Shown here piece after piece: positions 6,170 to 63,822 of a DNA stretch of 64,000 bases (within the stretch, counting starts at the first letter, position 1; the number at the start of each line of letters is the position of its first letter). This stretch comes from Dehalococcoidia bacterium (GTDB lineage: Bacteria > Chloroflexota > Dehalococcoidia > UBA2979). The DNA is taken from contig OZ253555.1 of the NCBI GenBank assembly GCA_965262725.1, positions 2,304,001 to 2,368,000 on the forward strand, given 5' to 3'. A program made the translations under genes and the position numbers. The notes beneath the pieces were generated by a model. It made no database searches and had not been told where the DNA came from. It worked only from the letters and a program-made list of their open reading frames with translations.

Positions 6170-6996
6170 CGTGCCGCCGCCGCCCCGGGCGCTCGGAAGC
6201 CGGCGGCCTCGAGCAGCCGCCAGACGCCCTCGGATGCGAGAAAGTCGGCGAATGCCTTCGCGTCGGCGCCGGCCCCGGCGAGGACGACGGCGACGTACTC
6301 GTTGGCGGGGAGCCCGGCCGGTAGGTCGAGCGCGCGCAGCGCCTCGCCGTCGCGCGCGCTGCCGCGTCGGGCGTCCGTCTCATAGACGAAGGCGGCATCG
6401 GCCTCGCCGGTCTCGACGCGGGAGAGCACGAGCCGCACGCTCGGATCCTCCGTCACGATGTTGGCGCGGATCCGGGCGGCGAGTTCGGCGTCGAGCAGCG
6501 CAAGGGCCGAGCGCGTGAGCGCCCCCACCGGAACGTCGGGCGCCCCCACGGCGACGCGGCGTCCCGGCTCCGCCAGCGCCTCGACCGAGGCGATGGGAGA
6601 TCCCTCCCGCACCACGACGGCGAGCGCGTTGGCCGCGAACCCGAGCGACCGCGTCGCGCCCGCTGCAGCGACGAGGCGCTGGGCCTGGAGCCGGTTGGCA
6701 GAGAGCAGCACGTCGGCGGGCGCTCCCTCCTCGATCTGCGTCGCGAGCAGCTGCGAGCCACCGAAGACGACCGCCACCTCGACCCCCGGCCGCTCGGTCT
6801 CGAAGAGCTCGACCACGCGGGGCAGGACGTCGTCGAGCGACGAGGCGGCGAGGACGCGCAGCGTACGCTCACGCGTGCCGCTCTGGCCCTCGCCGCACGC
6901 GGCGATCAGCGCCGCGAGCACCGCGAGCGCCGCGAGCGCCGCGTGCCAGGAGGCGGACCGCGCGGGGCTCTGAGCCGAACTCTCCGGCACGTGCAT
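6166..6996 (-). CDS. modA: Molybdate ABC transporter substrate-binding lipoprotein
   Basis: Lipobox IAAC; VLAASSL, FGGSQLLATQIEEGAPADV, VPVG, ADAAFVY. Confidence 0.88.
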   Translation of the reverse strand: MHVPESSAQSPARSASWHAALAALAVLAALIAACGEGQSGTRERTLRVLAASSLDDVLPRVVELFETERPGVEVAVVFGGSQLLATQIEEGAPADVLLSANRLQAQRLVAAAGATRSLGFAANALAVVVREGSPIASVEALAEPGRRVAVGAPDVPVGALTRSALALLDAELAARIRANIVTEDPSVRLVLSRVETGEADAAFVYETDARRGSARDGEALRALDLPAGLPANEYVAVVLAGAGADAKAFADFLASEGVWRLLEAAGFRAPGAAAAR

Positions 6997-7103
6997 CCTT
7001 CCCTCCGGCGCACCGCCTTCCGGCGGTGACGATAGCAGCGCGGTCGCGCTGCGGAGCCGCGTGCGGTGCTACGATCGCGCTCCGCCCGGGAGGTCGGTCC
7101 CTG

Positions 7104-7652
7104 GTGATCTTCAATGTTTCCACGCTCCTCGGCGAGCCCGTGGGCGCATCGCGCGATCACGCGCTCGCCGACGCCCCGGCGGAGTCCGCCGCCCGCCCCC
7201 GGCCGATTCGGGGCGCCGCGCGTCTGACGCGGACCACGTCGGGCATCCTCGTCTCGGCGCGTCTCACCCTCGAGACGGATCTGGCGTGCGCGCGCTGCCT
7301 GACCCGATTCCGACGACCCCATGAGATCGCCTTCGACGAGGAGTTCGTGCCCGAGCACGACCCGGCGACCGGCCTGCCGCCGACCGTCGACGACCCGGAC
7401 ACGTTCCGCATCGATGCCCGCCAGCATCTCGACCTCAGCGAGGCGATCCGGCAGTATGAGCAGGCGGCGCTTCCGATCTCCCCGCTCTGCCGCGAGGAGT
7501 GCGCGGGCCTCTGCCCGCGCTGCGGTGCCGACCGCAACGAGAGCCCCTGCGGCTGCTCGGGCGACGACGAGGATCCGCGCTGGGGGCCGCTCGCCGCGAT
7601 CGCCAGCGCGTGGAGGCAGAAGGAGAAGCGGCGTGGCAGTCCCCAAGCGTAA
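7104..7652 (+). CDS. yceD: YceD/DUF177 family metal-binding protein
   Basis: GTG 7104 after GGAGGT; CARCL and LCREECAGLCPRCGADRN; directly upstream of rpmF. Confidence 0.88.
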   Translation: MIFNVSTLLGEPVGASRDHALADAPAESAARPRPIRGAARLTRTTSGILVSARLTLETDLACARCLTRFRRPHEIAFDEEFVPEHDPATGLPPTVDDPDTFRIDARQHLDLSEAIRQYEQAALPISPLCREECAGLCPRCGADRNESPCGCSGDDEDPRWGPLAAIASAWRQKEKRRGSPQA

Positions 7653-10460: not shown

Positions 10461-10811
10461 ATGGAACTCTTCGGCGTCGGCGCCATGGAGGCGCTGCTCG
10501 TCCTCGTCGTCGCGCTGATCGTCGTCGGACCGCGCCGCTTCCCCGAGATCGCGCGTCAGGGCGGGCGCTGGTACCGCGTCGCTCGCCGCTACGCGAGCGA
10601 GGTCACGCGGGACGTGCGCGGCGCCATGGAAGAGCTCAAGAGCGAGATCGAGGAGGAGAGCGAGGATCTGCGCTCGATCCGCGATCTCGGGGACGAGGTC
10701 GAGGCGGACCTCCGCGCGAGCACGCCTCCACTGGAGGACGCCGGGCCGGCGACAGGCCGAGCGGGCGGCGACGCCGCGCGGGCGCCTGATGAGGGCGGCT
10801 CCACTCGGTGA
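10461..10811 (+). CDS. tatB: Twin-arginine translocase TatA/TatB family subunit (TatB-like)
   Basis: FGVGAMEALLVLVVALIVVGPRRFPE plus amphipathic helix; overlaps tatC. Confidence 0.8.
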   Translation: MELFGVGAMEALLVLVVALIVVGPRRFPEIARQGGRWYRVARRYASEVTRDVRGAMEELKSEIEEESEDLRSIRDLGDEVEADLRASTPPLEDAGPATGRAGGDAARAPDEGGSTR

Positions 10812-11560
10812 CGACCGCGGATCAGGAGGAGCTGGCCGACGGCGGCAGCATGACGCTGCTGGAGCACCTCTCCGAGCTCCGGTCGCGCGTCACCTGGATG
10901 GCCGCGGCCGTCGCCGCCGGCTCCTTCGTCTTCTTCCTCCCGCCTATAGGCTTCCGGCTGATCGAGGTGCTCCTCGAGCCAGCGCGCGTCGCCATCGACG
11001 ACCCCACCTGGCGCCCGCAGTTCGTCGAACCGCTCGAGCTGATCGTCACGTTCTTTCAGGTCGGCCTGCTCGGCGGCGTCTCGGTCGCGATGCCCGTCCT
11101 CGTCTACCACGTGCTGCGCTTCGTGAGCCCCGCGCTCACCCGCAGCGAGCGCGTCTGGACACTGCCGATCGCCATCGGCGCTTCGATCTCGTTCCTGATC
11201 GGCCTCGCCTTCTGCTACTGGGTGGTGCTCCCGCTCACGCTCACCTTCCTCCTCACGTTCGGCGACGAGGTCGCGCAGGCCGACCTGCGGATCGGCAACT
11301 ACATCAACTTCGTCACGCGCCTGCTGCTCGTGCTCGGCCTCGTCTTCGAGACGCCGCTCGTGGTGATGGGTCTGGCGAAACTGCGCGTCGTCAGCGCCGG
11401 TCAGCTGCTCCGGCGCTGGCGCATCGCGGTGGTCGGCTCATTCCTCGTCTCGGCGATCGTGACGCCGACCATCGATCCGGTCACGCAGTCCCTGGTCGCG
11501 GGCCCGATGGTCCTTCTCTACTTCGTTGGTATCGGCCTCGCCTGGGTGGTGCGCCGCTGA
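10808..11560 (+). CDS. tatC: Twin-arginine translocase subunit TatC
   Basis: MTLLEHLSELRSR, FVSPAL, GLVFETP, AIVTPTIDPVTQ. Confidence 0.95.
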   Translation: MTTADQEELADGGSMTLLEHLSELRSRVTWMAAAVAAGSFVFFLPPIGFRLIEVLLEPARVAIDDPTWRPQFVEPLELIVTFFQVGLLGGVSVAMPVLVYHVLRFVSPALTRSERVWTLPIAIGASISFLIGLAFCYWVVLPLTLTFLLTFGDEVAQADLRIGNYINFVTRLLLVLGLVFETPLVVMGLAKLRVVSAGQLLRRWRIAVVGSFLVSAIVTPTIDPVTQSLVAGPMVLLYFVGIGLAWVVRR

Positions 11561-25631: not shown

Positions 25632-26258
25632 TCAGCGTACGGCGAGGACGGCGAGCACGAGGCCTGCGACGATGAAGAGCGCCCCCGACAGGCGCTCGAC
25701 GGCCGGCCCGGGGAGCAGGCGCGCGAGGCGCACGCCGGCGACGATCGCGAGCGCGTCGGCCGCCGTCATCCCCGCCGCTGCTCCCAGCCAGACGAGCAGC
25801 CCCCGACCGGGATCGACGCCGGCGAGGGAGATCGTCGCGAGCTGCGTCTTGTCCCCGAGCTCGGCGACGGTGAGCCCGACGACGAGCACCGCTCCCAGGA
25901 CGAGCGGAGCCCACCTCGTGTCGGCGCGGCGCGCCCTGGCGAGGAGCGCCGGCACGCCGTGCTCAGGCTCCCCGGCCCCGTCGTCCTCCCCGCCGGCGAA
26001 CGAGGCGTGCACGGTCCAGGCTCCCACCGCGACGAAGAGGAGGGCCGACCCCGCCTCCGCCAGGCGTCGCGGCAGTATCTCGCCGGCGGTGGCGCCGATC
26101 AGGACGGCCGCTCCCATGATCAGGGCGGCGGAGAGCGCGACCGCGGGGAGCAGCACGGCGATGCGCGCTCGCGCCGCCACCACCAGGACGAGCAGCATCG
26201 ACTTGTCGCCGAGCTCGGCGAGGAAGATGAGGGCGAAGCTCGAGGCGAGCGTTCCCAC
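25632..26258 (-). CDS. TMEM165/GDT1 (UPF0016) family Mn2+/Ca2+ transporter
   Basis: Two copies of the family motif: AELGDKS and AELGDKTQ. Confidence 0.92.
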   Translation of the reverse strand: MGTLASSFALIFLAELGDKSMLLVLVVAARARIAVLLPAVALSAALIMGAAVLIGATAGEILPRRLAEAGSALLFVAVGAWTVHASFAGGEDDGAGEPEHGVPALLARARRADTRWAPLVLGAVLVVGLTVAELGDKTQLATISLAGVDPGRGLLVWLGAAAGMTAADALAIVAGVRLARLLPGPAVERLSGALFIVAGLVLAVLAVR

Positions 26259-26262
26259 GGTG

Positions 26263-27102
26263 CTAGCGCCGCTGGCAGCCGGGGCAGAGATGCGTTCCGC
26301 GGCCTCCGACGCGTCGCTTCACGATGGTCGCGCCGCAGCGCCGGCACGCCTGCCCCTCGCGCCGGAAGACGGCGACCCGCACGGTGTGGAGCCCCTCGGC
26401 GCCCAGGCCGTCGCGGTAGTCGCTGAAGCTCGACCCGCGATCGGCGATCGACGCGTGAAGCGCCTCGCCCACGGCGGCATGGAGCCGTGCGACCCGCCTC
26501 GCGCCGAGCCGGTTCGACGGCGTGCGCGGGTCGATCCGCGCCCGCCAGCAGGCCTCGTCGGCGTAGATGTTGCCGACGCCGGCCGCGACCGCCTGGTCGA
26601 GCAGCGCCGACTTCACCGCCGCCGAACGCCGCGCGAGCGCCCGTCTCAGCCATCCCGCCGTGAACGCCTCCGAGAGCGCGTCGGGTCCCGCGCGCGGGAA
26701 GGCATCACGCGCCTCGTCGACCAGGTGCCACGTGGCGAACTTGCGCACGTCCCGCAGCGAGAGAGCGGCGCCGTCGTCGAACTCGGCTCGGGCCCGCTCG
26801 TAGCGGGCGCCCGACTCTGCCGCACTCGCGTCCACCCCGTCCGGCTCGTGCACCAGCGACCCGGTCATCCGAAGGTGGATCACCCAGTGGCGGCCGTCGT
26901 CAAGTCCCAGGAGCAGGTACTTCCCGTGGCGGCCGACATCGCGGATGAGGCGGCCCTGAAGGGCCTGCTCCATCGCCCGCGGGGCGTGGGTGACGGCGAG
27001 CCGCTCCGCTCCGGGGTGGATGGACACGCACTCGACCCTCCGCCCGGCGATTCGGGGCGCGAGGTCGCGCCGGATCGTCTCGATCTCGGGCAGCTCAGGC
27101 AC
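26263..27102 (-). CDS. mutM: Formamidopyrimidine-DNA glycosylase
   Basis: PELPEIE N-terminus, HLRMTG, AGVGNIYADE, C-terminal CRRC...CPGCQ zinc finger. Confidence 0.96.
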   Translation of the reverse strand: MPELPEIETIRRDLAPRIAGRRVECVSIHPGAERLAVTHAPRAMEQALQGRLIRDVGRHGKYLLLGLDDGRHWVIHLRMTGSLVHEPDGVDASAAESGARYERARAEFDDGAALSLRDVRKFATWHLVDEARDAFPRAGPDALSEAFTAGWLRRALARRSAAVKSALLDQAVAAGVGNIYADEACWRARIDPRTPSNRLGARRVARLHAAVGEALHASIADRGSSFSDYRDGLGAEGLHTVRVAVFRREGQACRRCGATIVKRRVGGRGTHLCPGCQRR

Positions 27103-32691: not shown

Positions 32692-33141
32692 CTACGAGGA
32701 GTCGGCGACCCGCTCCCAGAGCGTCTCGTAGCCCTCGCCGCCGCGGATCGCAGCGACAAGATCGATGCGCTCGGCGCGGAGTGCACTCTGGAAGGCGCGC
32801 TCGCACTCCTCGGCCAGCTCGGGACCTCCCTCGGACACGAGCCGCTGCTCGATGTGCTCCCAGAGGCCCATGTCGCGCATGACCTGGATACGCCGAGGCC
32901 ACTCGAAGACGGTGATCTGCTCGGGGAGCCCGAGCGTTGGTCGCTCGCGGCGGAGGTAGCGGTAGCGCTCCTCAGCGGAGTGGACGCGTGGAACCAGGCG
33001 GATAATCGGGCGATCTGTCGGGCCCGGCCGCGCATCGACGAGGAGCCGCTGGTCGATCAGGCCGAAGCGGACGATGAAGACGTCGGCCTCTCGGATGACA
33101 CCGACGATCGCGTCCAGATCGATGCCGAACTCGCGGTCCAT
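32692..33141 (-). CDS. Conserved hypothetical protein (149 aa)
   Basis: Globular-looking [29 protein letters not shown]...YETLWER, co-oriented with its neighbours. Confidence 0.7.
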
Positions 33142-33251
33142 CCGGCCCACCGTCCCGCGCCGATCCCCGGTGCCCGACTCCCGGAGAATCCTGCAAACGA
33201 TTGTAGGACCCGGCTCTCGGGCACCGCAACGGCGCCGGCCCGCCCCGGCGG

Positions 33252-34061
33252 CTACGCGGGCTCCACCGGGAGCTGGTAGGTGCGATCGAGGTACGGGATG
33301 CGGACGAGCCCGGTCATCTGCAGCCCGAGGGCGATCAGCACGACGCCGCCGATCCGCGTGAGGGTGTCGAGCGAGTCCTGCACGAGCGTCCCAACGAAGC
33401 CGAAGGAGGCCCCGACCACGGTGAAGACGGCCGTGAAGCCAAGCACGAAGGCCAGCGCGTGCCCGAGCACGCGCCGGCGGTCGATCCGCGCGCGGCCCGT
33501 GCCGAAGAGGGCCTCCCCGGCGAGGTTCGCGAGATAGGCCGGCACCAGCGGAAGCACGCAGGGGGAGAGGAAGGACACCATGCCCCCGAAGAAAGCGAAC
33601 ACAGGTCCCGCGACGCCGTCGACTCCGCCCGCGAGGTCGCGCTCGGCGCTCTCGGTCGAGCCGAGGAGGAAGCCGAACTTCTGGAAGTAGATGTTCAGCC
33701 GGGCGAACTCGCCCAGCACCATCAGCGCCCCCACGGCGATGAAGAGCACGCCGGAGACGATCATGATCCTCCCCAGGTACGGGTAGAGCGCGCGGATGCG
33801 CGGAGCGATCCAGCCGAAGAGGAGTCCGAAGGCGAGGAACCACACGCCCAGCCCGAGCGAGTAGCAGGCGAGCAGCAGCGCCCCCTGTGCGGCGGTGCCG
33901 CTGGTCGCCGCGAGCGTGAGTACGACGCCCAGGATCGGTCCGATGCAGGGCGACCACGCCACGGCGAAGGCGGAACCGATCAGGACGGAGCGCCGGTAGC
34001 CCGTGGTCGGCCCCGGCGGCGGCGCGGCCGGGGCCGATTCGACCGACAGATCGGTGCTCAC
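33252..34061 (-). CDS. ccdA: CcdA/DsbD-TM thiol:disulfide transporter, circularly permuted
   Basis: Both redox-Cys motifs present ([11 protein letters not shown] and [14 protein letters not shown]) in reverse of the canonical order; about 6 TM. Confidence 0.88.
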
Positions 34062-34085: not shown

Positions 34086-34292
34086 CTACTCGCCCAGACC
34101 GAGCAGGCGGCGGCGCGCCCGCTCGTAACGATCCTTGGCGCGCGCCTCGCGGTTCAGCAGACCCTTCAACTGGTCGGGAGCCCGCCTCTCACCGTCCAGG
34201 AGAACGGCGTGGAGCCGCGTGAGCTGCGCCTGCCAGTCCTCGTAGGCGGCACGGTAGGACGCCCTGGGATCGCCGCTCGCCTCGTCCGCCAT
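34086..34292 (-). CDS. Small hypothetical helical protein (68 aa)
   Basis: ATG 6 nt after a TAGGAT -10 box; 24 bp upstream of ccdA. Confidence 0.65.
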   Translation of the reverse strand: MADEASGDPRASYRAAYEDWQAQLTRLHAVLLDGERRAPDQLKGLLNREARAKDRYERARRRLLGLGE

Positions 34293-39685: not shown

Positions 39686-40225
39686 CTAGCCGCGCTGGAT
39701 GACGCCGCAGGCGACGCGGTCGCCGGCCCCGGCGGCCTCGCCGTAGCTATCGGGGTTGGCGTGGACGATGATCGCGGATCCGTCGTCGTCGAACAGGGAG
39801 TGGTCGGCGCCCTCGTCCAGGGTGACGGCATCGCTGAAGTAGTCGGCGCGGGCGGCGCCGTCGGCGCCGCCGTGGATGTTCGGCAGGTCGCCGGCGTGCG
39901 CGCCGTCCTCGTGCAGGAAGCCGTGGCCAGAGCTGCCGGGGTTGAAGTGGTCGCCGGCCGCCGCGAAGTCCGGGGTGCAGGCGCCGACGGCGTGGATGTG
40001 GAAGCCGTGCGCGCCGGGCGAGAGCCCGCTCACGTCAGCCGAGACCAGCACGCCGTGGGGGGCCTGCGTGAGCGTCACCGTGCCCATCGATGCGCCGTCT
40101 GGTCCGGTCAGGGTCGCCGAGGCGGTCGCGCCTATGCCTTCCGGCGCCGCATCGCCGCCGCAAGCCGCCAGCGCCAGTGCCGCAAACAGTGCCGCTGCAG
40201 CGAGGGATGCCAGGCGCAACTTCAT
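39686..40225 (-). CDS. sodC: Cu/Zn superoxide dismutase, lipoprotein
   Basis: Lipobox LAAC; HGFHIH, AGDHFNP, HAGDLPN, IIVHANPD, AGDRVACGVI. Confidence 0.93.
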   Translation of the reverse strand: MKLRLASLAAAALFAALALAACGGDAAPEGIGATASATLTGPDGASMGTVTLTQAPHGVLVSADVSGLSPGAHGFHIHAVGACTPDFAAAGDHFNPGSSGHGFLHEDGAHAGDLPNIHGGADGAARADYFSDAVTLDEGADHSLFDDDGSAIIVHANPDSYGEAAGAGDRVACGVIQRG

Positions 40226-40398
40226 GATCGGAAACCCCCATCCGCACGCGAACTATCGCGGCGATCCTCGGCTGGGGGCGGCCTACCAGCAAACGCCGGC
40301 ACACCCACCCTCCAGATGTCGACGGCCCCGGGCGAACCCCGGGGCGGTCGACAGTGACAGTGCGCCGCTGCAGCGGGAGGACAGCCGCCCGGGCGGAG

Positions 40399-43300
40399 CT
40401 AGCCGCCCGCCGCGTCGTCCCGCCCCGGCCCGGCTGCGGGCGGCCGGTCGCTCCTCGCCACCAGGGGGGTCATCGGGCTCAGGCCGCCGGCGTGGAGCGC
40501 GACGAACGACCGGTTCACGAACTCGGGGGCACCGATGATGTAGGGGAGCCAGGCGCCGTCCTCGAGGGCGTAGAGCGTCGCGACGCCGAGGCTTCGGGCG
40601 CAGTCATCGAGCTCCTCCACGCCGCCCCCGCTGTAGACGACGATGCTGAAGCCTGAGGCGACCTCGCCGCGCAGGCAGCCGGTCGAGCCCTGCGCGAGGG
40701 GAGCCTCCGGGGCCGGGTCCCCGCTGGCAGGTCCGCTGCTGCCGGCGATCAGCGCGGTGACGGAGGGGACTCCGTCGGCGAACAGCTCGCCGAAGGCGCG
40801 GTTGACGAACGCGGGGGCCCCGATGATGTAGGGGACCCAGGCGCCGTTGTCGAGGGCATAGAACCTCGCGACGTGGCGGCTCTTAGCGCACTCCTCCAGC
40901 TCCTCGATGCTGCCGCCCTCGAAGAAGACGAGGCTGAAGCCGACGGCGACCGCGCCGCTCAGGCAGTGCGCCCACCCTTCATCGGTCTCGCCCACTCGCA
41001 CCAGGTAGACCGTCGTGCGGCTGCCGTCCTCAGATGTCACCGTGACCGTGATCTCGGGACCGCCCTCGACGGAGACCTGGTGGCCCGCGGCCTCGGGGTC
41101 GGCGTCCGGGGGGTCGACGGCGACCCTCGCGCGTCGCTGCGCGGCCCCGGCCTCCACGGTGGCCTGCGTGACGCCCTCTGCGACCGTCCCCTCGTACTCC
41201 ACCCGCCCCGGCTCGAAGTCGCCGATCTCCACGCCGCTGAGGCTCAGGGAGGCGAGGCGGGCGTCGATCGCGTCGGGCATGTTGTAGGTGTAGACCTTGT
41301 CGTCGCTCTCGTCGGCGACGTACATGACGTCGCCGTCCGACCAGAGGCCGCGCGGGCTGTTGTTGCTGGCGCGGCTCAGCAGCGTGAAGTCCTCGTCCGA
41401 GATGCGTTCGAGCGGGGTCGGCTCGGCGTCCTCCGCCGCGGGCGCGGCCGGCCGCGCCGGCAGGCGGTAGGCGATGAGCCGCTTCAGGCGGTCGTCCGAC
41501 ACCCAGACCGTGGTCCGGTCGGACCAGATGCCGTGGGGAACGTCGTTGGCGGGGTCGAGCCCGTACTCGGCGAGCAACTCGCCAGTGGCGAGGTCGTAGG
41601 CGAAGAGGCCGTCCTTCCCGCCGTCGAGCACCCACATCGTCTCGTCGTCGGACCAGATGCCGCGGGCGTCGCTGTTGCGGGCGGCGAGCGCGAGCTCACG
41701 CTCCTCCTGGCGCTCGCCCGTCATGAGGTGGTAGGCGAAGAGGCGCTCCTGGCCGCTGTCCGACACCCACGCGGTCACCTCGTCCGACCAGACGCCGCGC
41801 GGGGCGCGGTTTGTCTCATGCAGCGCGAACTCGCGCTCCTCGACGCGCTCGCCCGTCGCGAGCTCGTAGGCGTAGACGGCGTCGTCTGAGCCGGAACCGT
41901 TCTCCAGGATCCAGAGCGTCGTGGCGTCGGACCAGAGGCCGGAGGGGGTGTTGTGGCCGCCGTCGAGCTCCTCGATGTCCCGCGTGACCGTCCACTCGAA
42001 GTCCTCGTCACTGGGGGTGGGGCCGGACGACCCGCCTCCGCCTCCGCCTCCGCCTCCGCCGAAGCTGGGGCCCCCTCCTCCGCCCGGCGGGGTTGGCGCA
42101 GCGCTGGTGACCCTGATCGTCACGTCGATCGTCGCCGTGCCGCCGTTGCCGTCGTTCGCGTCGACAATCACCGCGTAGCTCTCCTGGAACGCCGGATCGA
42201 GCACGGCGTTCGGAGCCACCGTGATCTGGCCGGTGTGCTCGGCGATCGCGAACTCCGGCGGGCCGAATACCTGGTACGTGAGCATATCGGCGTCGACGTC
42301 CGTTGCCGCGACGCGGGCGCCGACCCTGGTACCGGCTGACGCGCCCGGCGCGACGGTGCGGGTGGTGGTCGCCGACGGGAACGTCGGGGCGTCGTTCACC
42401 GCTCCGATGTCGACATCGACGGCCGCCCTGGCGGTCAAACCCTTGGAATCTCTCACCTCGTACATCAAGCTGTCTCCGCCCACGTAGTCCTTCCTGGGCG
42501 TGTACGCGACTCTTTGATCACTCTCGACTGTCGCCGTGCCGCTGGGAGGTCTGACAATGTGCACCGTCATGGCGTCGCCATCGTCCGGGTCGAAGTCGTT
42601 ACTCAGGACGTCGATCATGACCCGCTTGTCCTCGAGCGTGCTGACCTGGTCGGTGTCGGCCCTCGGCTGCTCGTTGACGTCGTTCACGGTGACGGTGACC
42701 ATGATCGTGGCGTCGACCGCCGTGCTGATGTCGCCCCGCGCATTCTTCCCGTCGCTGACCTGGACGGTGACCGTGCGGCTCTCCGCGGCTTCGTGGTCGA
42801 GCGCGTCCTTCGTGCGCAGCTGGCCCGTCCCGGCATCAACGCTGAAGGCGGCGCCGCTCTCAGCGATGGAGTAGGTCAGGGTGTCGCCCTCTTCGTCAGT
42901 TGCCGCGACGGGCGCGCCGACTGCCCGGCCCGGCGGCGTGTTCTCGTCGACCGAGCGCAGGCCGGTCTCCGTCGAGGGGAACCGGGGGCGCTGGTTGCGC
43001 CGCAGCACGGCCGTGCCCGACCACGCGCCCGCGCCCTCGCTGTTGGCGGCCCGCACCTCGATGTCGTAGTCGAACTCGTTGTCGATCGAGGAGACGGTGT
43101 GCTCCAGGGCGCCGTCGCCGGTGTTCCAGGCAGTCTCGACATCCCAGTTCGAGTCGGCCCGGTCGGTCTCATCCGCCTCAATGTAGCGTACGTCGTACCT
43201 GGTGATCTCGGCGCCGCCGTTGCGGGCCGGAGCGCTCCACGAGACCGTGAACTCCCCATCTCCGGCAACGACGCTGTCGATGGCGGGAGCGCCGGGCTCG

Positions 43301-46143
43301 ACGGTCATGGTTTGCCCCTGTGCGACCTCGGACCATGGTCCCGCGCCGGCGCTGTTGACCGCGCGGACCTGCACGTCGTAGCCGACATCCAGGGTCAGGC
43401 CGGACAGCTCGTAGACGAGGTCGCCGGCGCTCCAGATCCGCATCTTCGGCGTCCAGTGCTCGTCCTCCCTGTCCGTTGCGTCGGTGCGGATGTAGCGCAG
43501 GTCGTAGCTCGTGATCGCGGAGGCGCCGATGTCCTCGGGCGCCTCCCAGCCGATGGTGAGGTAGGTGTCGCCCGGCCCGACGGAGGCGATCGCGGGATGG
43601 CGGGGCTTCAGGCCATGGCCGCGGATCGTCAGGCTCCAGCCCGCCAGCGTTCCGTCGTCTGGCAGGCTCGGATCCTTCACCGTCAGCGTCCATGTACCCT
43701 CGGGGTCCTCACCGAGATGACGCGCGGAGCCGAGGTCGATCGGGCTTCGCAGTTCCTGCGGAAGCAGCAACTGCCAGATGTCCCCGGCTGTCCCGGCCAG
43801 GAGCCTGGAGCTGGCTCCCGATGGCGCGATCAGGTCGATCGTCAGTTCCCTGAACTTGTCGTGGTCGATGTCGAGGTTGACGGTGACGTACTCGATGAAC
43901 TCGATGTGGTCACCCGCGATAGCGAGAGTCGTCGTGAAGGTGTTGTTGTCGAGCGACTGGCTCATGGGTGCAGACGTGATCGTCAGCGTTCGGAGGGCGG
44001 GCAGTCCGGGCCATGTCTGCGCCAGCGCTACGGCGGCGCCGGCATCGATCACCCCGAAGCCGTAGGTGTGGTTGTAGTTGTACCGTGCGCTGGTCGAGCC
44101 GTACCGCAGCGCTCCCACTTCCCAGCCACTGTGCGAGGTGTGGTTCTTGCGCGCCGTGGCCGCGATGATGAGCCTGGCGTCGCGCCAGGTCAGCTCAAGG
44201 TTGGCGGCCCGCATGAGCGCTACGACTCCGGACACTAGGGGAGCCGATGCCGAGGTGCCCCCGAACGCATCGGTGTAACCGCCGTTCGTGGTCGTCGCGA
44301 TCTGCGGCAAGTCGCTGTATCGCTCATTCGACGGGGCACAAACCCAGAGGTTGGGTCCCCTCACGGAGCGCGGGCTGCGCACATCCCTGTAGTTGACGGC
44401 GCAGACCGTGACCACGCCGTAGTGGCTGTTGATTTCGCTGAGGTTGGAATAGTCGTTGTCGCCGCCGTTGCCGGCACCGAAGACGTACACCGTCCCCTTT
44501 CCGCCGAAGCCCTCGGAGAGCCCGCGCTCGATTGCGCTGGGCCAGGCTGCCCCGGTCAGCTTCGGAGCCCCGTCGCCCCCGAACCCCCAGCTGTTGTTGC
44601 TCACGGCAGTCTGCGCCAGATGCAGCAGCGCGGCCTCGGCCGCCAGCGCCTGGTTGCGCGCCACGTCACTCGAGAACGCTTCGACCACGTTGGAGCCGTA
44701 GATGGAGGATCGAGGCGCGACCCCGACCATGCCGAAGCCGTTGTCCCGCGCCGCGATCAGACCTGCCACGCTCGTACCGTGGCTCTGGCGTTGTCGGAAA
44801 AAGGTTCGGGCAGGCGTGTGGTTCTGGTCTGGCAGGATGTTGTCCCGCAGGTCCGGGTGATCGAGCTGGAACCCGCCGTCGATGACCGCGACCGTCACCC
44901 CCGCGCCCTTGGTGATTTCCCAGGCCGCCTCCACGTTGATGTCCTGGCGCGCGCCCCCGGCTTGCAGGTTCCCCGTGTTCTTGAGGTGCCACTGGCAGCC
45001 CGAGAGCGGCTCGCCCAGGAGCGAGGGCAGCTTTGTGCAGCGATCCTGCAGATCCTGGTTGCCGGCCGAGAAGCCCACCTTCAGGGTGTACCGGCCGCCT
45101 GAGCGCGCCGCCGCCTCCGCCACGTGAACCACGTACGTCCCGGGTGTCAGGAACGCGGTCGCTTCGAAGGCGACATGATCCTTGTTGATCTCCGACCAGT
45201 AGGATTGCGGGAGGACGTACGTGTCGACCTCCTGGTCGCTGCTGTTGCGGATGGTCGGCGTCAGGGCGAGCAACGCGCCCTGGATCGCGATCGCGCGGAG
45301 CTTCACCCACGAATCCCCCGCCACGGTGAGCTGGAAGTAGTCGTCCGCGCTGGTCGCGTCCACGCGGCCCCCGTATACGCCACCGAGACTGACAGGCGTC
45401 GCCGTGGCGGCCGTGCTGCCCGGATCGTGCACAGCCCGAATGTGGAGGGAGTACGAGCCGGTGGGCCGGCCGTTGCGGGTGCTGCTCGCAACCCTGAGGT
45501 AATAGGTCCCTGCGTTCACCGACCGACGGATGGCGAAGTCCAGCCCCACCTGCGGCTCGGCGTAGCTGTTCGATGTGATCGTTCGGCCGTTGCTGTCCTG
45601 CAGCGAGCCCTCCGTATCGACGCCCCCGGTGGTGTAGAACCAGAGATCGACCGCCTCCGTCAGCACGAGTTTGAACAGGTCCACATCCCCCTCGATATGG
45701 ATCTGAGACGGGATGGTCGAATTGAGCTGCACCGGCGTCGCCTCGGTGCGCCCGGAACTGTGGTCGTGGGGCTGTTCCGTGACGGTCCGGGAGCCGCTCG
45801 CGCCGTCGGTGTTGACCGCCCGCACCTGCACGTCGTACCGGGCGTTGTCGCCCAGGCCTGGGATGACGTGCTGGAGCGTGCCCGACGGTGAGATGCGGCT
45901 CACCACGGTCCAGCTGCCGTCCGACTTGTCGCTGGCGCTGCTCAGGATGTAACGCACGTCGTAGGAGGTGATGGCGGAGCCGCCGGTGTTGGCGGGTGCG
46001 GCCCACGAGACGGTGAGGGAGCCGCCGCCGGCGGTCAGCGAGGTGGCGGTCGGCGCGCCCGGCGCCGTCTGCGCAGCCGCGCGTTCAGCGGGGGCCGTGA
46101 CGCAGAGCGCGACAACGATCGCCAGCAGCGCCGCCCACCTCAC
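40399..46143 (-). CDS. Giant secreted kexin/furin-like S8 protease (1914 aa): FN3, PPC-like domains, S8, P domain, FN3 x2, cadherin/Ig x3, poly-Gly, beta-propeller, beta-sandwich, two C-terminal repeats
   Basis: Signal peptide; catalytic triad VAVIDGG, SHGTSVAG, FGGTSASAP; oxyanion GAGNG; LTWRD and YGFGVIDA; P domain GEDPEGTWTLTVKD; FN3 YDVQVRAVN. Confidence 0.9.
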   Translation of the reverse strand: MRWAALLAIVVALCVTAPAERAAAQTAPGAPTATSLTAGGGSLTVSWAAPANTGGSAITSYDVRYILSSASDKSDGSWTVVSRISPSGTLQHVIPGLGDNARYDVQVRAVNTDGASGSRTVTEQPHDHSSGRTEATPVQLNSTIPSQIHIEGDVDLFKLVLTEAVDLWFYTTGGVDTEGSLQDSNGRTITSNSYAEPQVGLDFAIRRSVNAGTYYLRVASSTRNGRPTGSYSLHIRAVHDPGSTAATATPVSLGGVYGGRVDATSADDYFQLTVAGDSWVKLRAIAIQGALLALTPTIRNSSDQEVDTYVLPQSYWSEINKDHVAFEATAFLTPGTYVVHVAEAAARSGGRYTLKVGFSAGNQDLQDRCTKLPSLLGEPLSGCQWHLKNTGNLQAGGARQDINVEAAWEITKGAGVTVAVIDGGFQLDHPDLRDNILPDQNHTPARTFFRQRQSHGTSVAGLIAARDNGFGMVGVAPRSSIYGSNVVEAFSSDVARNQALAAEAALLHLAQTAVSNNSWGFGGDGAPKLTGAAWPSAIERGLSEGFGGKGTVYVFGAGNGGDNDYSNLSEINSHYGVVTVCAVNYRDVRSPRSVRGPNLWVCAPSNERYSDLPQIATTTNGGYTDAFGGTSASAPLVSGVVALMRAANLELTWRDARLIIAATARKNHTSHSGWEVGALRYGSTSARYNYNHTYGFGVIDAGAAVALAQTWPGLPALRTLTITSAPMSQSLDNNTFTTTLAIAGDHIEFIEYVTVNLDIDHDKFRELTIDLIAPSGASSRLLAGTAGDIWQLLLPQELRSPIDLGSARHLGEDPEGTWTLTVKDPSLPDDGTLAGWSLTIRGHGLKPRHPAIASVGPGDTYLTIGWEAPEDIGASAITSYDLRYIRTDATDREDEHWTPKMRIWSAGDLVYELSGLTLDVGYDVQVRAVNSAGAGPWSEVAQGQTMTVEPGAPAIDSVVAGDGEFTVSWSAPARNGGAEITRYDVRYIEADETDRADSNWDVETAWNTGDGALEHTVSSIDNEFDYDIEVRAANSEGAGAWSGTAVLRRNQRPRFPSTETGLRSVDENTPPGRAVGAPVAATDEEGDTLTYSIAESGAAFSVDAGTGQLRTKDALDHEAAESRTVTVQVSDGKNARGDISTAVDATIMVTVTVNDVNEQPRADTDQVSTLEDKRVMIDVLSNDFDPDDGDAMTVHIVRPPSGTATVESDQRVAYTPRKDYVGGDSLMYEVRDSKGLTARAAVDVDIGAVNDAPTFPSATTTRTVAPGASAGTRVGARVAATDVDADMLTYQVFGPPEFAIAEHTGQITVAPNAVLDPAFQESYAVIVDANDGNGGTATIDVTIRVTSAAPTPPGGGGGPSFGGGGGGGGGGSSGPTPSDEDFEWTVTRDIEELDGGHNTPSGLWSDATTLWILENGSGSDDAVYAYELATGERVEEREFALHETNRAPRGVWSDEVTAWVSDSGQERLFAYHLMTGERQEERELALAARNSDARGIWSDDETMWVLDGGKDGLFAYDLATGELLAEYGLDPANDVPHGIWSDRTTVWVSDDRLKRLIAYRLPARPAAPAAEDAEPTPLERISDEDFTLLSRASNNSPRGLWSDGDVMYVADESDDKVYTYNMPDAIDARLASLSLSGVEIGDFEPGRVEYEGTVAEGVTQATVEAGAAQRRARVAVDPPDADPEAAGHQVSVEGGPEITVTVTSEDGSRTTVYLVRVGETDEGWAHCLSGAVAVGFSLVFFEGGSIEELEECAKSRHVARFYALDNGAWVPYIIGAPAFVNRAFGELFADGVPSVTALIAGSSGPASGDPAPEAPLAQGSTGCLRGEVASGFSIVVYSGGGVEELDDCARSLGVATLYALEDGAWLPYIIGAPEFVNRSFVALHAGGLSPMTPLVARSDRPPAAGPGRDDAAGG

Positions 46144-46373
46144 CGGGCAGGGACATCCGCGCGCTCACACGGGCCGCGATGCAGGCGCCGCCGCCCCGCG
46201 CGGGCGGTCTCAAGACCGCCCACCTGATCACCACCGACCACGTCATTGAGTTCGGAGTCGAGGTCGAACGCGGGCGGGCTCGGCGTCCCAGCCAGGGGCT
46301 CGACCTGCTCGTTGCCGCTGACGTCGCCGTCGGGTGCCAAGACAGGGGCCTTCAACTAGTGGCTGCGCCACTC

Positions 46374-50893: not shown

Positions 50894-54829
<3,936 letters not shown>

Positions 54830-55383
54830 CCCATAGCCTCCGCGGTCGCGATGATTGATGGATGGGGCGCGAGCCCGGCCGGACGGGGAATCCGCCCGTG
54901 ACGCTCGACCGGCCTCAATCGCCAAGCGGGATCGCCAGATGCCAGCGAGGGATAGAGCTCGAGAGAACCTGCCCCCTCGTTACTGGGGCGCGCAGCTCAG
55001 ATGGACCGCTTCTGGGAAGTGGCGGGAACCGCGGAGCGTGCCGTGCCTCTGTCCTCGGGGACACCGACGTACGCGGCAATCTCCCACGGCGGATGAGGTC
55101 ATGCTCGAGCCCTTCACGTCCATCTACCAGCAAGGCTCCGGCGAACTCATCAGCCCCCCGTTCGACGCGGCCCCCGAACATGGTGTGCTCCGGCATCAGG
55201 AGGTGTTCTCCGCGTGCAGGAACGTGCGTCCGATGGCGTGCGCGATCATCCACCGCCACCTCGGCAGGCCGAGGCGTTGCCCCGTTCGGCCACATAGCTG
55301 GTCCGCATCTGCTCCCGTTTCACCCACGGCGCGCGGCCCGACGCACCCCGGTAGGTTGTCCGCCATCGCAGCTGTCGACGTGT

Positions 55384-60643: not shown

Positions 60644-60968
60644 GGTGAGCGTCCCCGAAGCGGAAACTGTCAAGGTCTCGGGCGACACGCTGACCGCCGA
60701 GCTTTCCGACGGGCGCACCATCTCCGTGCCACTCGACTGGTACCCGCGGCTGACCCACGCCACGCCGGAGGAGCGCGACAACTGGCGGCTCATCGGGGGA
60801 GGCGAGGGCATCCACTGGCCCGACCTGGACGAGGACATCAGCGTCGAGGGCCTGATTGCTGGTCGTCCGTCCGCCGAGAGCCAGAAGTCCTTCCAGCGCT
60901 GGCTGGAGGCCAAGCGCGCCGGCCGACCGCTGACGCTGGATGCCTTGCTTCGTCACGACCGTGAGTGA
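60624..60968 (+). CDS. DUF2442 (DhiA-like) putative antitoxin
   Basis: LSDGRTISVPLDWYPRLTHATPEER, GIHWPDLDEDISVEGL. Confidence 0.9.
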   Translation: MSVSMLEVSVPEAETVKVSGDTLTAELSDGRTISVPLDWYPRLTHATPEERDNWRLIGGGEGIHWPDLDEDISVEGLIAGRPSAESQKSFQRWLEAKRAGRPLTLDALLRHDRE

Positions 60969-60988
60969 CTGGCGAGAAGAGAGGGGCG

Positions 60989-61330
60989 ATGAAGTTGACG
61001 TATGCCGTCGTCATGGAGCAGACGCCCAACAACTACGGCGCCTACGCGCCAGACGTACCGGGCTGCATCAGCACGGCCGACACCTGGGATGAGATGCTGG
61101 CGATGATCCGCGGAGCGCTCACCTTCCACATCGAACTCCTGATCGAGGACCGCGATCCGGTGCCGTCGCCGACGGTGTCCATCGACGACGCCATCGCGCA
61201 CCACAGCCGGGCGCTCTCCGAGGCCGACGAGGAGTTGCTGGCCGAATGCGGTGACGCCCCTCCGACGATCTCGACCCGCTTCGAACTGGTCGAGATCGAG
61301 GTTCCGGCGCTGCAACCCGAGGCCGTGTAG
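60989..61330 (+). CDS. HicB-family antitoxin (no adjacent hicA)
   Basis: YAVVMEQTPNNYGAYAPDVPGCISTADT...ALTFHIE...DRDPVPSP. Confidence 0.85.
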   Translation: MKLTYAVVMEQTPNNYGAYAPDVPGCISTADTWDEMLAMIRGALTFHIELLIEDRDPVPSPTVSIDDAIAHHSRALSEADEELLAECGDAPPTISTRFELVEIEVPALQPEAV

Positions 61331-62231: not shown

Positions 62232-63416
62232 TCACTCGCCGGCCTCGATCCCCACGATCAGGTCGAGCAGGCCGGCAGCCTCCCAGCTGCGATTCCGCGC
62301 CGAGCGGCTGAGCGGGATGAGGACACCGCACGACTCCAGCTGGCTGATCGCATGAGCGACCGCCGGGCGTGTCCGCCCGGTAGCCGCCTGAGCCACGCTG
62401 GTCGTGATCACGGGGTGCGCAGGCAAGGCGTCGACGATCGGCCACGCGGCGGCATCCGAACGCGGGCGGACGTCCCGGGCCAGCTGCTCGCGCCACATCT
62501 CCTGCAGCCCGGCGACGCGTTCGGCGTACCGCGCAGCGAGCAGCGCCGCGGCTGCGGTTGCCTCGGCGAAGATCGCCACCCACCCGGCGGACCGATCTGC
62601 CCGAAACTGCGCCAGTCCCTCGATGTAGCGTTCACGATGGCGGGCAAGCACGACGCTGATCGGTGGTACGTAGGACGGCGCCAGTTGACGCCGCCGGAGG
62701 ATCACCTGGACGAGGGCGCGCCCTGTGCGTCCGTTGCCATCCTCAAATGGATGGATCGTCTCGAACTGCGCGTGCGCGATCGCCGCCTGGACGAGCGGCG
62801 ACAGGGTGTCGTCATTGCAGAAGGTGGAGAGATCCGCAAGCAGCGGCCCGACCTCTTCCGGCGGCGGTGGGACGAAGTCAGCCCCACACGGGTTGTAGCT
62901 GTTGCCGCCGATCCAGTTCTGGACAGTCCGGACGCGGCCGACGGTGCCTGCGCGGGCGTCGGGAGCCATCAGCACGCGATGGATCGACGCAAGCCCGGCG
63001 GTATCGATCGCCTGCTCTCCGGCGGCATGCTCGACGGCGAGCTCCATCGCGTCGATGTTCGCAAGAATGCCCATGGCGTCCGGGCCGACCCGCTGCCCGG
63101 CATCCTGCTTTACCTCGGCTCGGGCGAGGTCCCGGGCGTCGACCTGCATCCCCTCGATCCTCGACGAGCCGATCGCCTCGGTCCGCAGCAGGAGCCGGGC
63201 GAGCGGCGCCAGCCGGGCGGCGGAACCCCGGTTCAGGTCCGAGATCGCTTTCTCCGCCTCGGAGACGAGCCCGACGACGTCGCCGGGGAGGCTGAGCTTG
63301 AGAGTCGCCAGCATGTCCGGGACAAAGGCATCGTACGAGCACGCCCGCCGATAGCTCGCCGGGGCGTACAGCGTGGGGTCATGCTTCCATGTTCGTCGAA
63401 GCAGGCGGCTGCGCAC
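62232..63416 (-). CDS. Fic family protein with C-terminal HTH
   Basis: EAIGSSRIEG, RTVQNWIGG, HAQFETIHPFEDGNGRTGR. Confidence 0.93.
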   Translation of the reverse strand: MRSRLLRRTWKHDPTLYAPASYRRACSYDAFVPDMLATLKLSLPGDVVGLVSEAEKAISDLNRGSAARLAPLARLLLRTEAIGSSRIEGMQVDARDLARAEVKQDAGQRVGPDAMGILANIDAMELAVEHAAGEQAIDTAGLASIHRVLMAPDARAGTVGRVRTVQNWIGGNSYNPCGADFVPPPPEEVGPLLADLSTFCNDDTLSPLVQAAIAHAQFETIHPFEDGNGRTGRALVQVILRRRQLAPSYVPPISVVLARHRERYIEGLAQFRADRSAGWVAIFAEATAAAALLAARYAERVAGLQEMWREQLARDVRPRSDAAAWPIVDALPAHPVITTSVAQAATGRTRPAVAHAISQLESCGVLIPLSRSARNRSWEAAGLLDLIVGIEAGE

Positions 63417-63822
63417 CGGGCATCCTTTCGCGTTCGGACGCGATAGGAAAGGCTAGCATACTAAACTTTCTCATGGGCAAGCGAAGGGCAAGGTTATCGC
63501 GCTGCTGCTTCTCGTTGAGCGCAGCGACGCCGGCCCTGCGTCCCGCCAGTCGGCCTGGCAACTCCACCCCGCACCCGATCTCCGTCACCTGCCAGTCGAT
63601 CCGCTCGGCGACCACGCTGCGACACCGTTCGTTCCGCAGGCCACGCCGTGACGCTCGCGGTAGCGTGGCCCGTGCCGACGGCGCGGCGCCCGGGCGTCGA
63701 GCGGATCCTCCTTGATCGGGGGAGCGGGTGGGCACGGACTCGTTCGAACGTTACGGCGCCGCGAGCTGTCGCGACCGGTCGCGGTCAGCATGCACGGCCG
63801 CTCGCGTGTGAGCTATCACACG

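Follow-up and report, generated by a model that had tools for sequence, protein, structure and literature searches.

A gene for a protein of the DsbD/CcdA superfamily, in which the two halves of the membrane domain follow each other in reversed order, was found in a 64,000-nucleotide stretch of the genome of a Dehalococcoidia bacterium (contig OZ253555.1, positions 2,304,001 to 2,368,000; this whole stretch is called the window below). We consider it likely, with a probability of about 0.8, that the gene encodes a functional six-helix thiol-disulfide electron transporter, permuted relative to canonical CcdA and running TM4-TM5-TM6, a 24-residue linker, TM1-TM2-TM3 (TM, transmembrane helix, with its canonical number). 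Judged by sequence comparison, the permuted CcdA, here called the P1 form, is a conserved natural family in many Chloroflexota and not an error.

Order of the two halves

The open reading frame (ORF) of the permuted ccdA is intact from a GTG start codon to a TAG stop codon, and a Shine-Dalgarno-like GGAGGGG lies 5 nt 5' of the GTG. Its GC content at third codon positions (GC3) of 0.94 matches that of the real genes of the window, which has an overall GC content of ~72%. The gene and its parts, with lengths in amino acids (aa), are as follows.

33252..34061, minus strand: whole gene for the permuted CcdA (P1 form), 269 aa, from the ORF list
34008..34061, minus strand: N-terminal tail, aa 1-18, sequence-variable in alignments of 24 and 125 sequences and predicted cytoplasmic
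33675..34007, minus strand: first repeat, aa 19-129, equivalent to the canonical C-terminal repeat (TM4, TM5, TM6) according to the hidden Markov model (HMM), 5VKV and half-profile comparisons
33936..33956, minus strand: WSPCIGP motif, aa 36-42, with redox Cys39 (codon 33945-33947), equivalent to the canonical TM4 motif; coordinates checked
33603..33674, minus strand: linker, aa 130-153, connecting the old C-terminal end behind TM6 with the old N-terminal end ahead of TM1, outside the canonical HMM match
33264..33602, minus strand: second repeat, aa 154-266, equivalent to the canonical N-terminal repeat (TM1, TM2, TM3) and the start of the TM3-TM4 loop, according to the same three comparisons
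33549..33575, minus strand: SFLSPCVLP motif, aa 163-171, with redox Cys168 (codon 33558-33560), equivalent to the canonical TM1 motif; coordinates checked

The mapping was obtained with an HMM of 245 positions that we built from 59 canonical CcdA ORFs of loci fetched in a genome scan (see below). Residues 19-129 of the protein matched model positions 128-238 (independent E-value, i-E, 5e-32) and residues 154-266 matched positions 10-124 (i-E 2e-38). Model positions 10-238 were thus each covered once, with the exception of 125-127, and the end of the chain (aa 253-266) aligned to the canonical TM3-TM4 loop at about positions 108-124. Coverage of this kind, with each position present once, marks a clean circular permutation that is opened in the TM3-TM4 loop. 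The Pfam family DsbD_TM (PF02683) was matched in two stretches with 60 bits against a cut-off of 27.1 (E 2.7e-16), the best of them placing residues 154-255 on profile positions 5-103 of 219. A phmmer comparison with the CcdA of Thermus thermophilus (5VKV_A; whole-sequence E 1.2e-25) aligned residues 155-252 to chain positions 7-93 (i-E 7e-14) and residues 20-128 to positions 108-212 (i-E 1e-10).

This result was further examined with separate profiles of the two canonical halves. For residues 141-269 the profile of the canonical N-half gave 127.3 bits and that of the C-half 4.5 bits; for residues 1-140 it was the C-half profile that scored high, at 106.6 bits against 8.4 bits for the N-half. 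Since each half favours the opposite canonical half by about 100 bits, the half swap is, on these scores, real homology and neither chance nor convergence of motifs.

The first-pass annotation of the window had described the protein as a natural circular permutation of CcdA, with an intact ORF that holds both cysteines, the WSPCIGP motif ahead of the SFLSPCVLP motif, the usual C-terminus joined to the usual N-terminus by a linker, and a chain that ends in the usual TM3-TM4 loop. Each of these statements was borne out. Cys39 and Cys168 are both present, the motifs occur in that order at the positions claimed, the linker lies between the two mapped halves, and the HMM, PDB-sequence and half-profile comparisons gave two matches in reversed order rather than a single colinear one.

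The protein belongs to the DsbD/CcdA superfamily by homology, as it exceeds the DsbD_TM cut-off and matches 5VKV. It carries the two redox cysteines in proline-rich motifs, one in each three-helix repeat, and is predicted to contain six uncharged hydrophobic segments in which both repeats occur once each, an arrangement that fits the helices of the AlphaFold2 (AF2) models described below. The colinear canonical architecture, with the N-half followed by the C-half, was not found with Pfam, 5VKV or our own HMM. Because the order of the halves is reversed, the protein should be regarded as a variant of the family and not as a canonical CcdA.

To place the protein among its relatives, 5.8 billion clustered proteins were searched; among 8,000 scored there were 5,828 matches at E <= 0.001, and the best 120 of these were examined. 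These best 120 of 5,828 are 244-299 aa long and share 62-100% identity with the query over 86-100% of its length in one alignment. According to our HMM, the C-half precedes the N-half in all 120, one of them being the window's own protein. Organism names accompany nine of the 120, and all nine are Chloroflexi or Dehalococcoidia metagenome-assembled genomes (MAGs). The source names of the listed relatives are 'hypothetical', 'CcdA' or 'TauE/SafE', and matches in the ESM Atlas were to CcdA clusters only, commonest in Chloroflexota.

When 1.84 billion representatives, clustered at 50% identity, were searched with a profile, 11,954 matches at E <= 0.001 were obtained. The best 150 of these were classified as 131 canonical proteins, six full-length P1 proteins (P0112, P0122, P0125, P0129, P0133 and P0137, with P0112 being the window's own cluster), eight proteins of a second permuted form (P2) and five fragments. 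Genomes were also scanned for related loci, and the best 80 of at least 601 stretches were assigned an architecture by BLAST and HMM mapping. Most were canonical, and one, designated L001 and found in a Dehalococcoidia MAG, was a P1 locus whose protein is colinear with that of the window at 48% identity.

The P1 sequences were aligned in a set of 24 and in a wider set of 125 that reaches down to 36% identity. Thirty columns are invariant in the 125 P1 sequences, including W36, P38, C39, G41, P42, S166, P167, C168, P171 and P174 (125/125 each). The linker is conserved as well: E140 and L143 are invariant in the smaller alignment and at least 90% conserved in the larger one, G152 is invariant in both, and P153 is among the conserved linker residues.

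Predicted topology, function and gene neighbourhood

The positive-inside rule is an established guide to membrane topology, and canonical CcdA is described as having both termini outside (N-out/C-out). We counted lysine and arginine (K+R) in each segment of P1, as means across 24 family members.

N-terminal tail: mean K+R 3.9, inferred inside
Loop 53-60: mean K+R 0.0, inferred outside
Loop 85-99: mean K+R 3.0, inferred inside
Linker 123-154: mean K+R 0.6, mean aspartate plus glutamate (D+E) 3.5, inferred outside
Loop 183-200: mean K+R 3.5, inferred inside
Loop 225-237: mean K+R 1.0, inferred outside
C-terminal tail: mean K+R 1.6, inferred inside

The value for the N-terminal tail covers aa 1-24, as an arginine pair at aa 23-24, just past the tail, belongs to the same inside-facing segment. 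The linker is acidic and predicted to be extracytoplasmic. From the alternation in K+R and the positive-inside rule, six helices with both termini inside (N-in/C-in) and the acidic linker outside are predicted. The canonical placement of both termini outside is thus not expected in P1. Each helix probably keeps its canonical membrane orientation, judging from the charge pattern, and the threading alone differs. The earlier proposal that the termini lie on the opposite side of the membrane is accordingly upheld at the level of inference (3.9, 3.0, 3.5 and 1.6 against 0.0, 0.6 and 1.0).

AlphaFold2 gave a mean predicted local distance difference test score (pLDDT) of 68.2 with the 24-sequence alignment, and of 75.2 with the 125-sequence alignment (predicted TM-score 0.70), which is medium confidence; residues 1-7 were below 50. 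In the model from 125 sequences, helices are broken at both cysteines: helix 20-36 is followed by helix 41-53, leaving residues 37-40 of the WSPCIGP motif between them, and helix 151-163 is followed by helix 172-184, with residues 164-171 at the SFLSPCVLP motif. Two short helices were observed in the linker region (119-132 and 134-143).

In the mechanism that we propose, the protein would fold into an ordinary six-helix CcdA bundle in which Cys39, on the first helix (equivalent to TM4), and Cys168, on the fourth helix (equivalent to TM1), face each other in two broken helices. Because each helix is thought to keep its canonical orientation, both new termini would be cytoplasmic, and the linker would lie outside at the site of the old termini. 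Cytoplasmic thioredoxin would then supply reducing equivalents, which the protein would hand on to at least one extracytoplasmic thioredoxin-fold protein whose gene lies elsewhere in the genome. We infer such thioredoxin-dependent export of reductant by P1 from analogy, with indirect support from the conservation of the cysteines and from the redoxin neighbours of the P2 form. The conserved acidic linker on the outside may have turned into a new docking site for some partner whose gene lies at a distance.

The genes that flank the permuted ccdA on the same strand are all, according to Pfam, unrelated housekeeping genes or genes of no known role. The two closest ORFs are listed here.

34086..34292, minus strand: upstream 68-aa ORF, ending 24 nt before the ccdA start; no Pfam family
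32692..33150, minus strand: downstream 152-aa ORF, ~100 nt past the ccdA stop; no Pfam family

The upstream 68-aa ORF is possibly co-transcribed with the permuted ccdA; no counterpart of it was identified among the Pfam-scanned neighbours of L001, a comparison by family and not by direct alignment. Further downstream are genes for a threonine-aldolase-like lyase, a DUF3108 protein, PolA, Fpg and a GDT1-family protein. An aldo/keto reductase and two luciferase-like oxidoreductases are encoded on the opposite flank of the permuted ccdA.

Some of the results weigh against a CcdA-type electron transporter. According to Pfam, there is no thioredoxin-fold or cytochrome c maturation gene among the 41 other ORFs of the window, and a redoxin-profile search of 806 six-frame ORFs of the 64-kb window gave a best E of 0.59. 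Beside L001, the second of the two loci in our P1 neighbourhood comparison, no such gene was found either. A Foldseek search of the PDB with both AF2 models gave no match at E <= 0.001, a result of an order-dependent aligner that we count neither for nor against the fold. With this aligner 5VKV, a nuclear magnetic resonance (NMR) model, appeared at rank 3 (E 0.31, TM-scores 0.41/0.47) and rank 12 (E 0.77, TM-scores 0.35/0.39).

As for the neighbourhood, the earlier remark that no thioredoxin-like gene is adjacent proved true across the 64-kb window, but it is not distinctive. A redoxin-like ORF was present within 3 kb in 32 of the 73 canonical loci, and none was near in the other 41 (three of the 73 gave one alignment piece only, and in one of these the contig stops within the locus). 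Genomic linkage to genes for thioredoxin-fold proteins or cytochrome c maturation, absent from both P1 loci, is thus a common feature of the family and not a defining one.

Three other explanations of the gene were considered. The reversed order could be an artefact of assembly or gene calling, caused by a chimeric contig or by two broken tandem ccdA copies that were taken for one ORF. A mis-join inside a tandem repeat would yield a permuted order, and frameshifted fragments of the CcdA family are numerous in metagenome-derived protein sets. The probability of this is nevertheless practically negligible: the ORF is intact with its GC3 of 0.94, no second DsbD-family or ccdA-like ORF was found in the window in any frame, and the 30 columns invariant in 125 sequences include both cysteines. 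The annotation had suggested looking for the same order in other genomes, and it recurs in every one of the 120 listed relatives, which come from several sources, in the six clusters at 50% identity (five besides the window's own) and in L001. An assembly artefact is excluded by this recurrence together with the strong conservation. Alternatively, there could be no permutation at all, and a protein of canonical order could be inserted upside down, its homologous repeats having swapped motifs by convergence. The two CcdA repeats are indeed anciently homologous, there are weak cross-matches of 8.4 and 4.5 bits, and the Foldseek alignment of the model with 5VKV ran from end to end at low TM-score, as pseudo-symmetry permits. 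This explanation is extremely improbable, however, given that the ~100-bit preference for the opposite half extends over the full length, beyond the motifs. The chain ends also align to both sides of the canonical TM3-TM4 loop, with only model positions 125-127 missing, the linker resembles the canonical tails, and the charge pattern matches the canonical helix orientations. Finally, the protein could be a true permutant with a different job, such as serving a new outside partner on the acidic linker, reducing a non-thioredoxin acceptor or performing non-redox transport. In favour of this are the 'TauE/SafE' label from one source, which suggests non-redox transport, the conservation of E140, L143, G152 and P153 in the linker, the absence of a redoxin gene beside P1 at both loci, and the canonical CcdA-redoxin fusions also carried by Chloroflexota, which could do the standard job. 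The protein is also below the cut-offs of NCBIfam TsoB (NF045694; 39.6 bits against 805) and NCBIfam DsbD (NF001419; 25.1 bits against 330), and is a member of neither. Against it, the invariance of both redox cysteines and their flanking prolines speaks for thiol-disulfide chemistry, an adjacent redoxin gene is likewise missing at 41 of 73 canonical loci, and the P1 neighbourhoods come from two loci only. We regard a different job as rather improbable and favour a permuted thiol-disulfide electron transporter.

Other genes of the window were recorded in passing. A Cu/Zn superoxide dismutase is encoded at 39686-40252 on the minus strand (Sod_Cu, E 2.4e-38). Such enzymes are usually exported and disulfide-bonded, and the gene is a reminder of the need for thiol-redox functions in the envelope; no link to the ccdA gene is shown. 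A tatA/tatC pair (10461-11560, plus strand) is bordered by acpP-like, nusB and fatty-acid synthesis genes and, at its other end, by a uracil-DNA glycosylase gene, an ordinary housekeeping context. Two predicted proteins of very large size are encoded on the minus strand, one of 1,921 aa (40399-46164) with subtilase S8, P-domain, fn3, cadherin-like and Big_9 domains, and one of 1,361 aa (50894-54979) with He_PIG, Big_9 and cadherin-like repeats. The GC content drops to 0.65-0.68 at ~42-48 kb, compared with ~0.72 elsewhere in the window. Near the end of the window are a HicB-like antitoxin ORF (60965-61330, plus strand) and a Fic/DOC family protein (62232-63452, minus strand).

A second permuted form and the origin of the permutations

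The second permuted form, P2, has the order TM2-3-4-5-6-linker-TM1. Residues ~15-204 map to positions ~46-238 of our HMM and the last ~40 residues to positions ~6-46. Pfam agrees, as residues 251-282 of the L057 protein fall on profile positions 4-35. Among the best 150 representatives, the eight P2 clusters are P0126, P0134, P0150, P0193, P0199, P0209, P0221 and P0233. The genome scan yielded the following P2 loci.

6412-7197, plus strand: P2 gene of L002
2046-2924, plus strand: P2 gene of L003
1227-2201, plus strand: P2 gene of L004
7920-8699, plus strand: P2 gene of L013
7911-8741, plus strand: P2 gene of L054
7950-8840, plus strand: P2 gene of L057

The hosts are Anaerolineae and other Chloroflexota MAGs, one Trueperaceae MAG and one Woesearchaeota MAG. 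Like P1, P2 is a circular permutation of the same ring, with a TM6-TM1 linker of ~15-30 residues and a break in a loop that is predicted to be cytoplasmic. Unlike P1, which is broken in the TM3-TM4 loop, it is broken in the TM1-TM2 loop (the equivalent loop of P1 has a mean K+R of 3.5). The linker sequence is not conserved between the two forms, and P2 is polyphyletic and often adjoins redoxin genes. Three of the six P2 loci lie directly beside Redoxin/AhpC-TSA or Thioredoxin_8/_10 genes, and two of these three are also beside lgt. By analogy, these neighbours suggest that thioredoxin-fold proteins are still the partners of re-threaded CcdAs.

An insert of ~45-95 residues in the TM3-TM4 loop, without a match in the canonical model, was observed in CcdA relatives of 330-360 aa. 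It is carried by the canonical proteins P0195, P0201, P0253, P0217 and P0143 and by the P2-form proteins P0193 and P0134.

For phylogenetic analysis, the domain pieces of each protein were aligned to the canonical HMM and merged by match column into 231 columns. The full set contained 216 rows (12 P1, 14 P2 and 190 canonical), and left out P0112, the five fragments, 115 of the 120 near-identical main-cluster proteins and, by a length filter, 14 of the 73 canonical loci. An IQ-TREE analysis (LG+C20) was made on 99 rows, consisting of the 87 rows of the mixed clade and 12 drawn at random from a purely canonical clade of 129 rows. FastTree and IQ-TREE both scattered the permuted forms among canonical ones, and the 47 canonical rows of the mixed clade that were re-examined proved genuinely colinear. 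On the IQ-TREE tree, P1 needs three changes and P2 needs 13. When constrained to one clade, P2 was rejected by the approximately unbiased (AU) test (delta lnL, the difference in log likelihood, 238; p-AU 1.4e-6) and P1 was not (delta lnL 43; p-AU 0.14). In this phylogeny P2 therefore had more than one origin or reversal. A single origin is possible for P1; the data allow it without establishing it, as the free trees split P1 and p-AU is 0.14.

A single or near-single origin of P1 finds support in shared sequence motifs. Five of the six P1 clusters have a linker motif, consisting of an invariant Glu, a Leu or Phe three residues on and then V-[DT]-G, and a C-terminal motif R-T-[YF]-[QRK]; P0137 is the outlier. 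The nearest canonical relatives have a short Gly-rich tail after a conserved F-N-x-Y-F, and a short leader that ends in G-P just ahead of TM1. The P1 linker resembles such a C-terminal tail followed by such an N-terminal leader, with ~9 extra residues between them. This resemblance fits an origin in which a canonical ccdA would have been duplicated in tandem, the copies fused head to tail, and the outer halves lost.

Other observations speak against this scenario. The free trees place P1 in three positions, and the strongly supported branches alone force at least two changes for P1, as they do for P2. None of the 80 loci contained two ccdA ORFs, and no tandem or permuted protein was seen among the best 120 of 214 longer relatives, which is weak evidence. 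Shorter relatives gave 189 matches, and of the best 120 we examined 13, mainly those on longer contigs. In several, the end is out of frame or the start is an internal Met; the short relatives look like frameshift pieces, and no convincing split halves were found among the 13. P1 could instead stem from the fusion of separately encoded three-helix half-genes, the C-half followed by the N-half, or could have had more than one origin. This would agree with the missing tandem or 12-helix intermediate, with the tree positions just described, with P0137, which has neither the shared linker motif nor the shared tail motif, and with the clear polyphyly of P2, by which re-threading recurs in the CcdA family. 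On the other side stand the short relatives, which look like products of frameshift or truncation and not like stand-alone halves, the resemblance of the linker to the canonical C-tail and N-leader, the motifs common to five of six P1 clusters, and a single P1 clade that is not rejected. We consider half-gene fusion or multiple origin unlikely, though with some weight, and prefer duplication, fusion and trimming of a canonical ccdA.

Comparison with known systems

Taking both forms together, we tentatively propose that the CcdA fold has been re-threaded repeatedly, as TM4-5-6-1-2-3 and as TM2-3-4-5-6-1, that the latter arose or reverted at least twice, and that all the new breaks lie in loops predicted to be cytoplasmic, which moves both termini inside. 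If this broader picture, which we hold to be somewhat doubtful, is true, selection may have acted on membrane insertion, as an N-in first helix avoids export of the N-terminal tail, or alternatively on access for cytoplasmic partners. CcdA would then be a natural test bed for helix connectivity in an elevator-type membrane oxidoreductase. The P1 family and the P2 class represent a natural experiment on whether the two inverted repeats of CcdA must be connected in the native way for the alternating-access or elevator movement that has been proposed. They also bear on how topology is set when the first helix goes from N-out to N-in, and on the rise of membrane-protein architectures through duplication and trimming. 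In practical terms, family models and annotation pipelines see only half-matches for permuted CcdAs. The permuted CcdA by itself reveals no new biochemical activity, and its interest lies in membrane-protein evolution and thiol-redox biology.

To our knowledge, polytopic membrane proteins have seldom been described as circularly permuted in nature. For CcdA and DsbD, no such report was found in the searchable literature, which did not extend to CcdA structure papers in subscription journals or to supplements. In the accessible text of PMC11205269, 'permutation' concerns green fluorescent protein (GFP).

DsbD is counted among the members of the LysE superfamily, in which the members with six transmembrane segments consist of two tandem three-segment elements in all families examined, as stated in the part of the source available to us (Tsu and Saier 2015, PMC4608589). 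The words 'permut', 'rearrang' or 'swap' do not occur in that accessible text. Two tandem three-helix repeats are, to the extent that this text covers them, what the other 3+3-helix LysE families have in common with P1. Another 3+3-helix member of this superfamily, a GDT1/UPF0016 (CaCA2) protein, is encoded in the window itself (25632-26318, minus strand) and gave two repeat matches in the ordinary order. The other families of the superfamily are ion or amino-acid transporters that are not known to carry a redox cysteine pair.

With the transmembrane (beta) domain of DsbD (PF02683), P1 shares the same two-cysteine membrane core, and it exceeds the Pfam cut-off. It differs from DsbD in its permuted order and in lacking the periplasmic alpha and gamma domains. 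DsbD is described as having eight helices, compared with six in P1.

The closest longer relatives of P1 are canonical CcdA-redoxin fusions of Chloroflexota (~540-670 aa), from the same phylum by their source names. They share 35-52% identity with the query, over ~33-50% of its length in most cases and up to 70% of it in one, and Redoxin and thioredoxin families are present in the precomputed Pfam lists of most of them. Unlike P1, all 120 listed (the best 120 of 214) have the canonical order, and the membrane domain is N-terminal in 105 of the 110 that are cleanly colinear. Because the termini of P1 are predicted to be inside, fusion of a redoxin to an outside terminus would not be possible in the same way, and the permuted forms should be unable to carry outside-facing fused redoxin domains as the canonical fusions appear to do.

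The most direct comparison is with the Thermus thermophilus CcdA (5VKV, 'membrane electron transporter CcdA'). Both halves of P1 are homologous to those of this protein, the cysteine motifs are the same, the lengths are similar, and both proteins have six hydrophobic helices arranged as two three-helix repeats. They differ in that the order-dependent structure search gives no significant match for P1, that the halves of P1 are reversed, with a 24-residue linker in place of the free termini, and that the termini of P1 are located in the former TM3-TM4 loop and predicted to be cytoplasmic.

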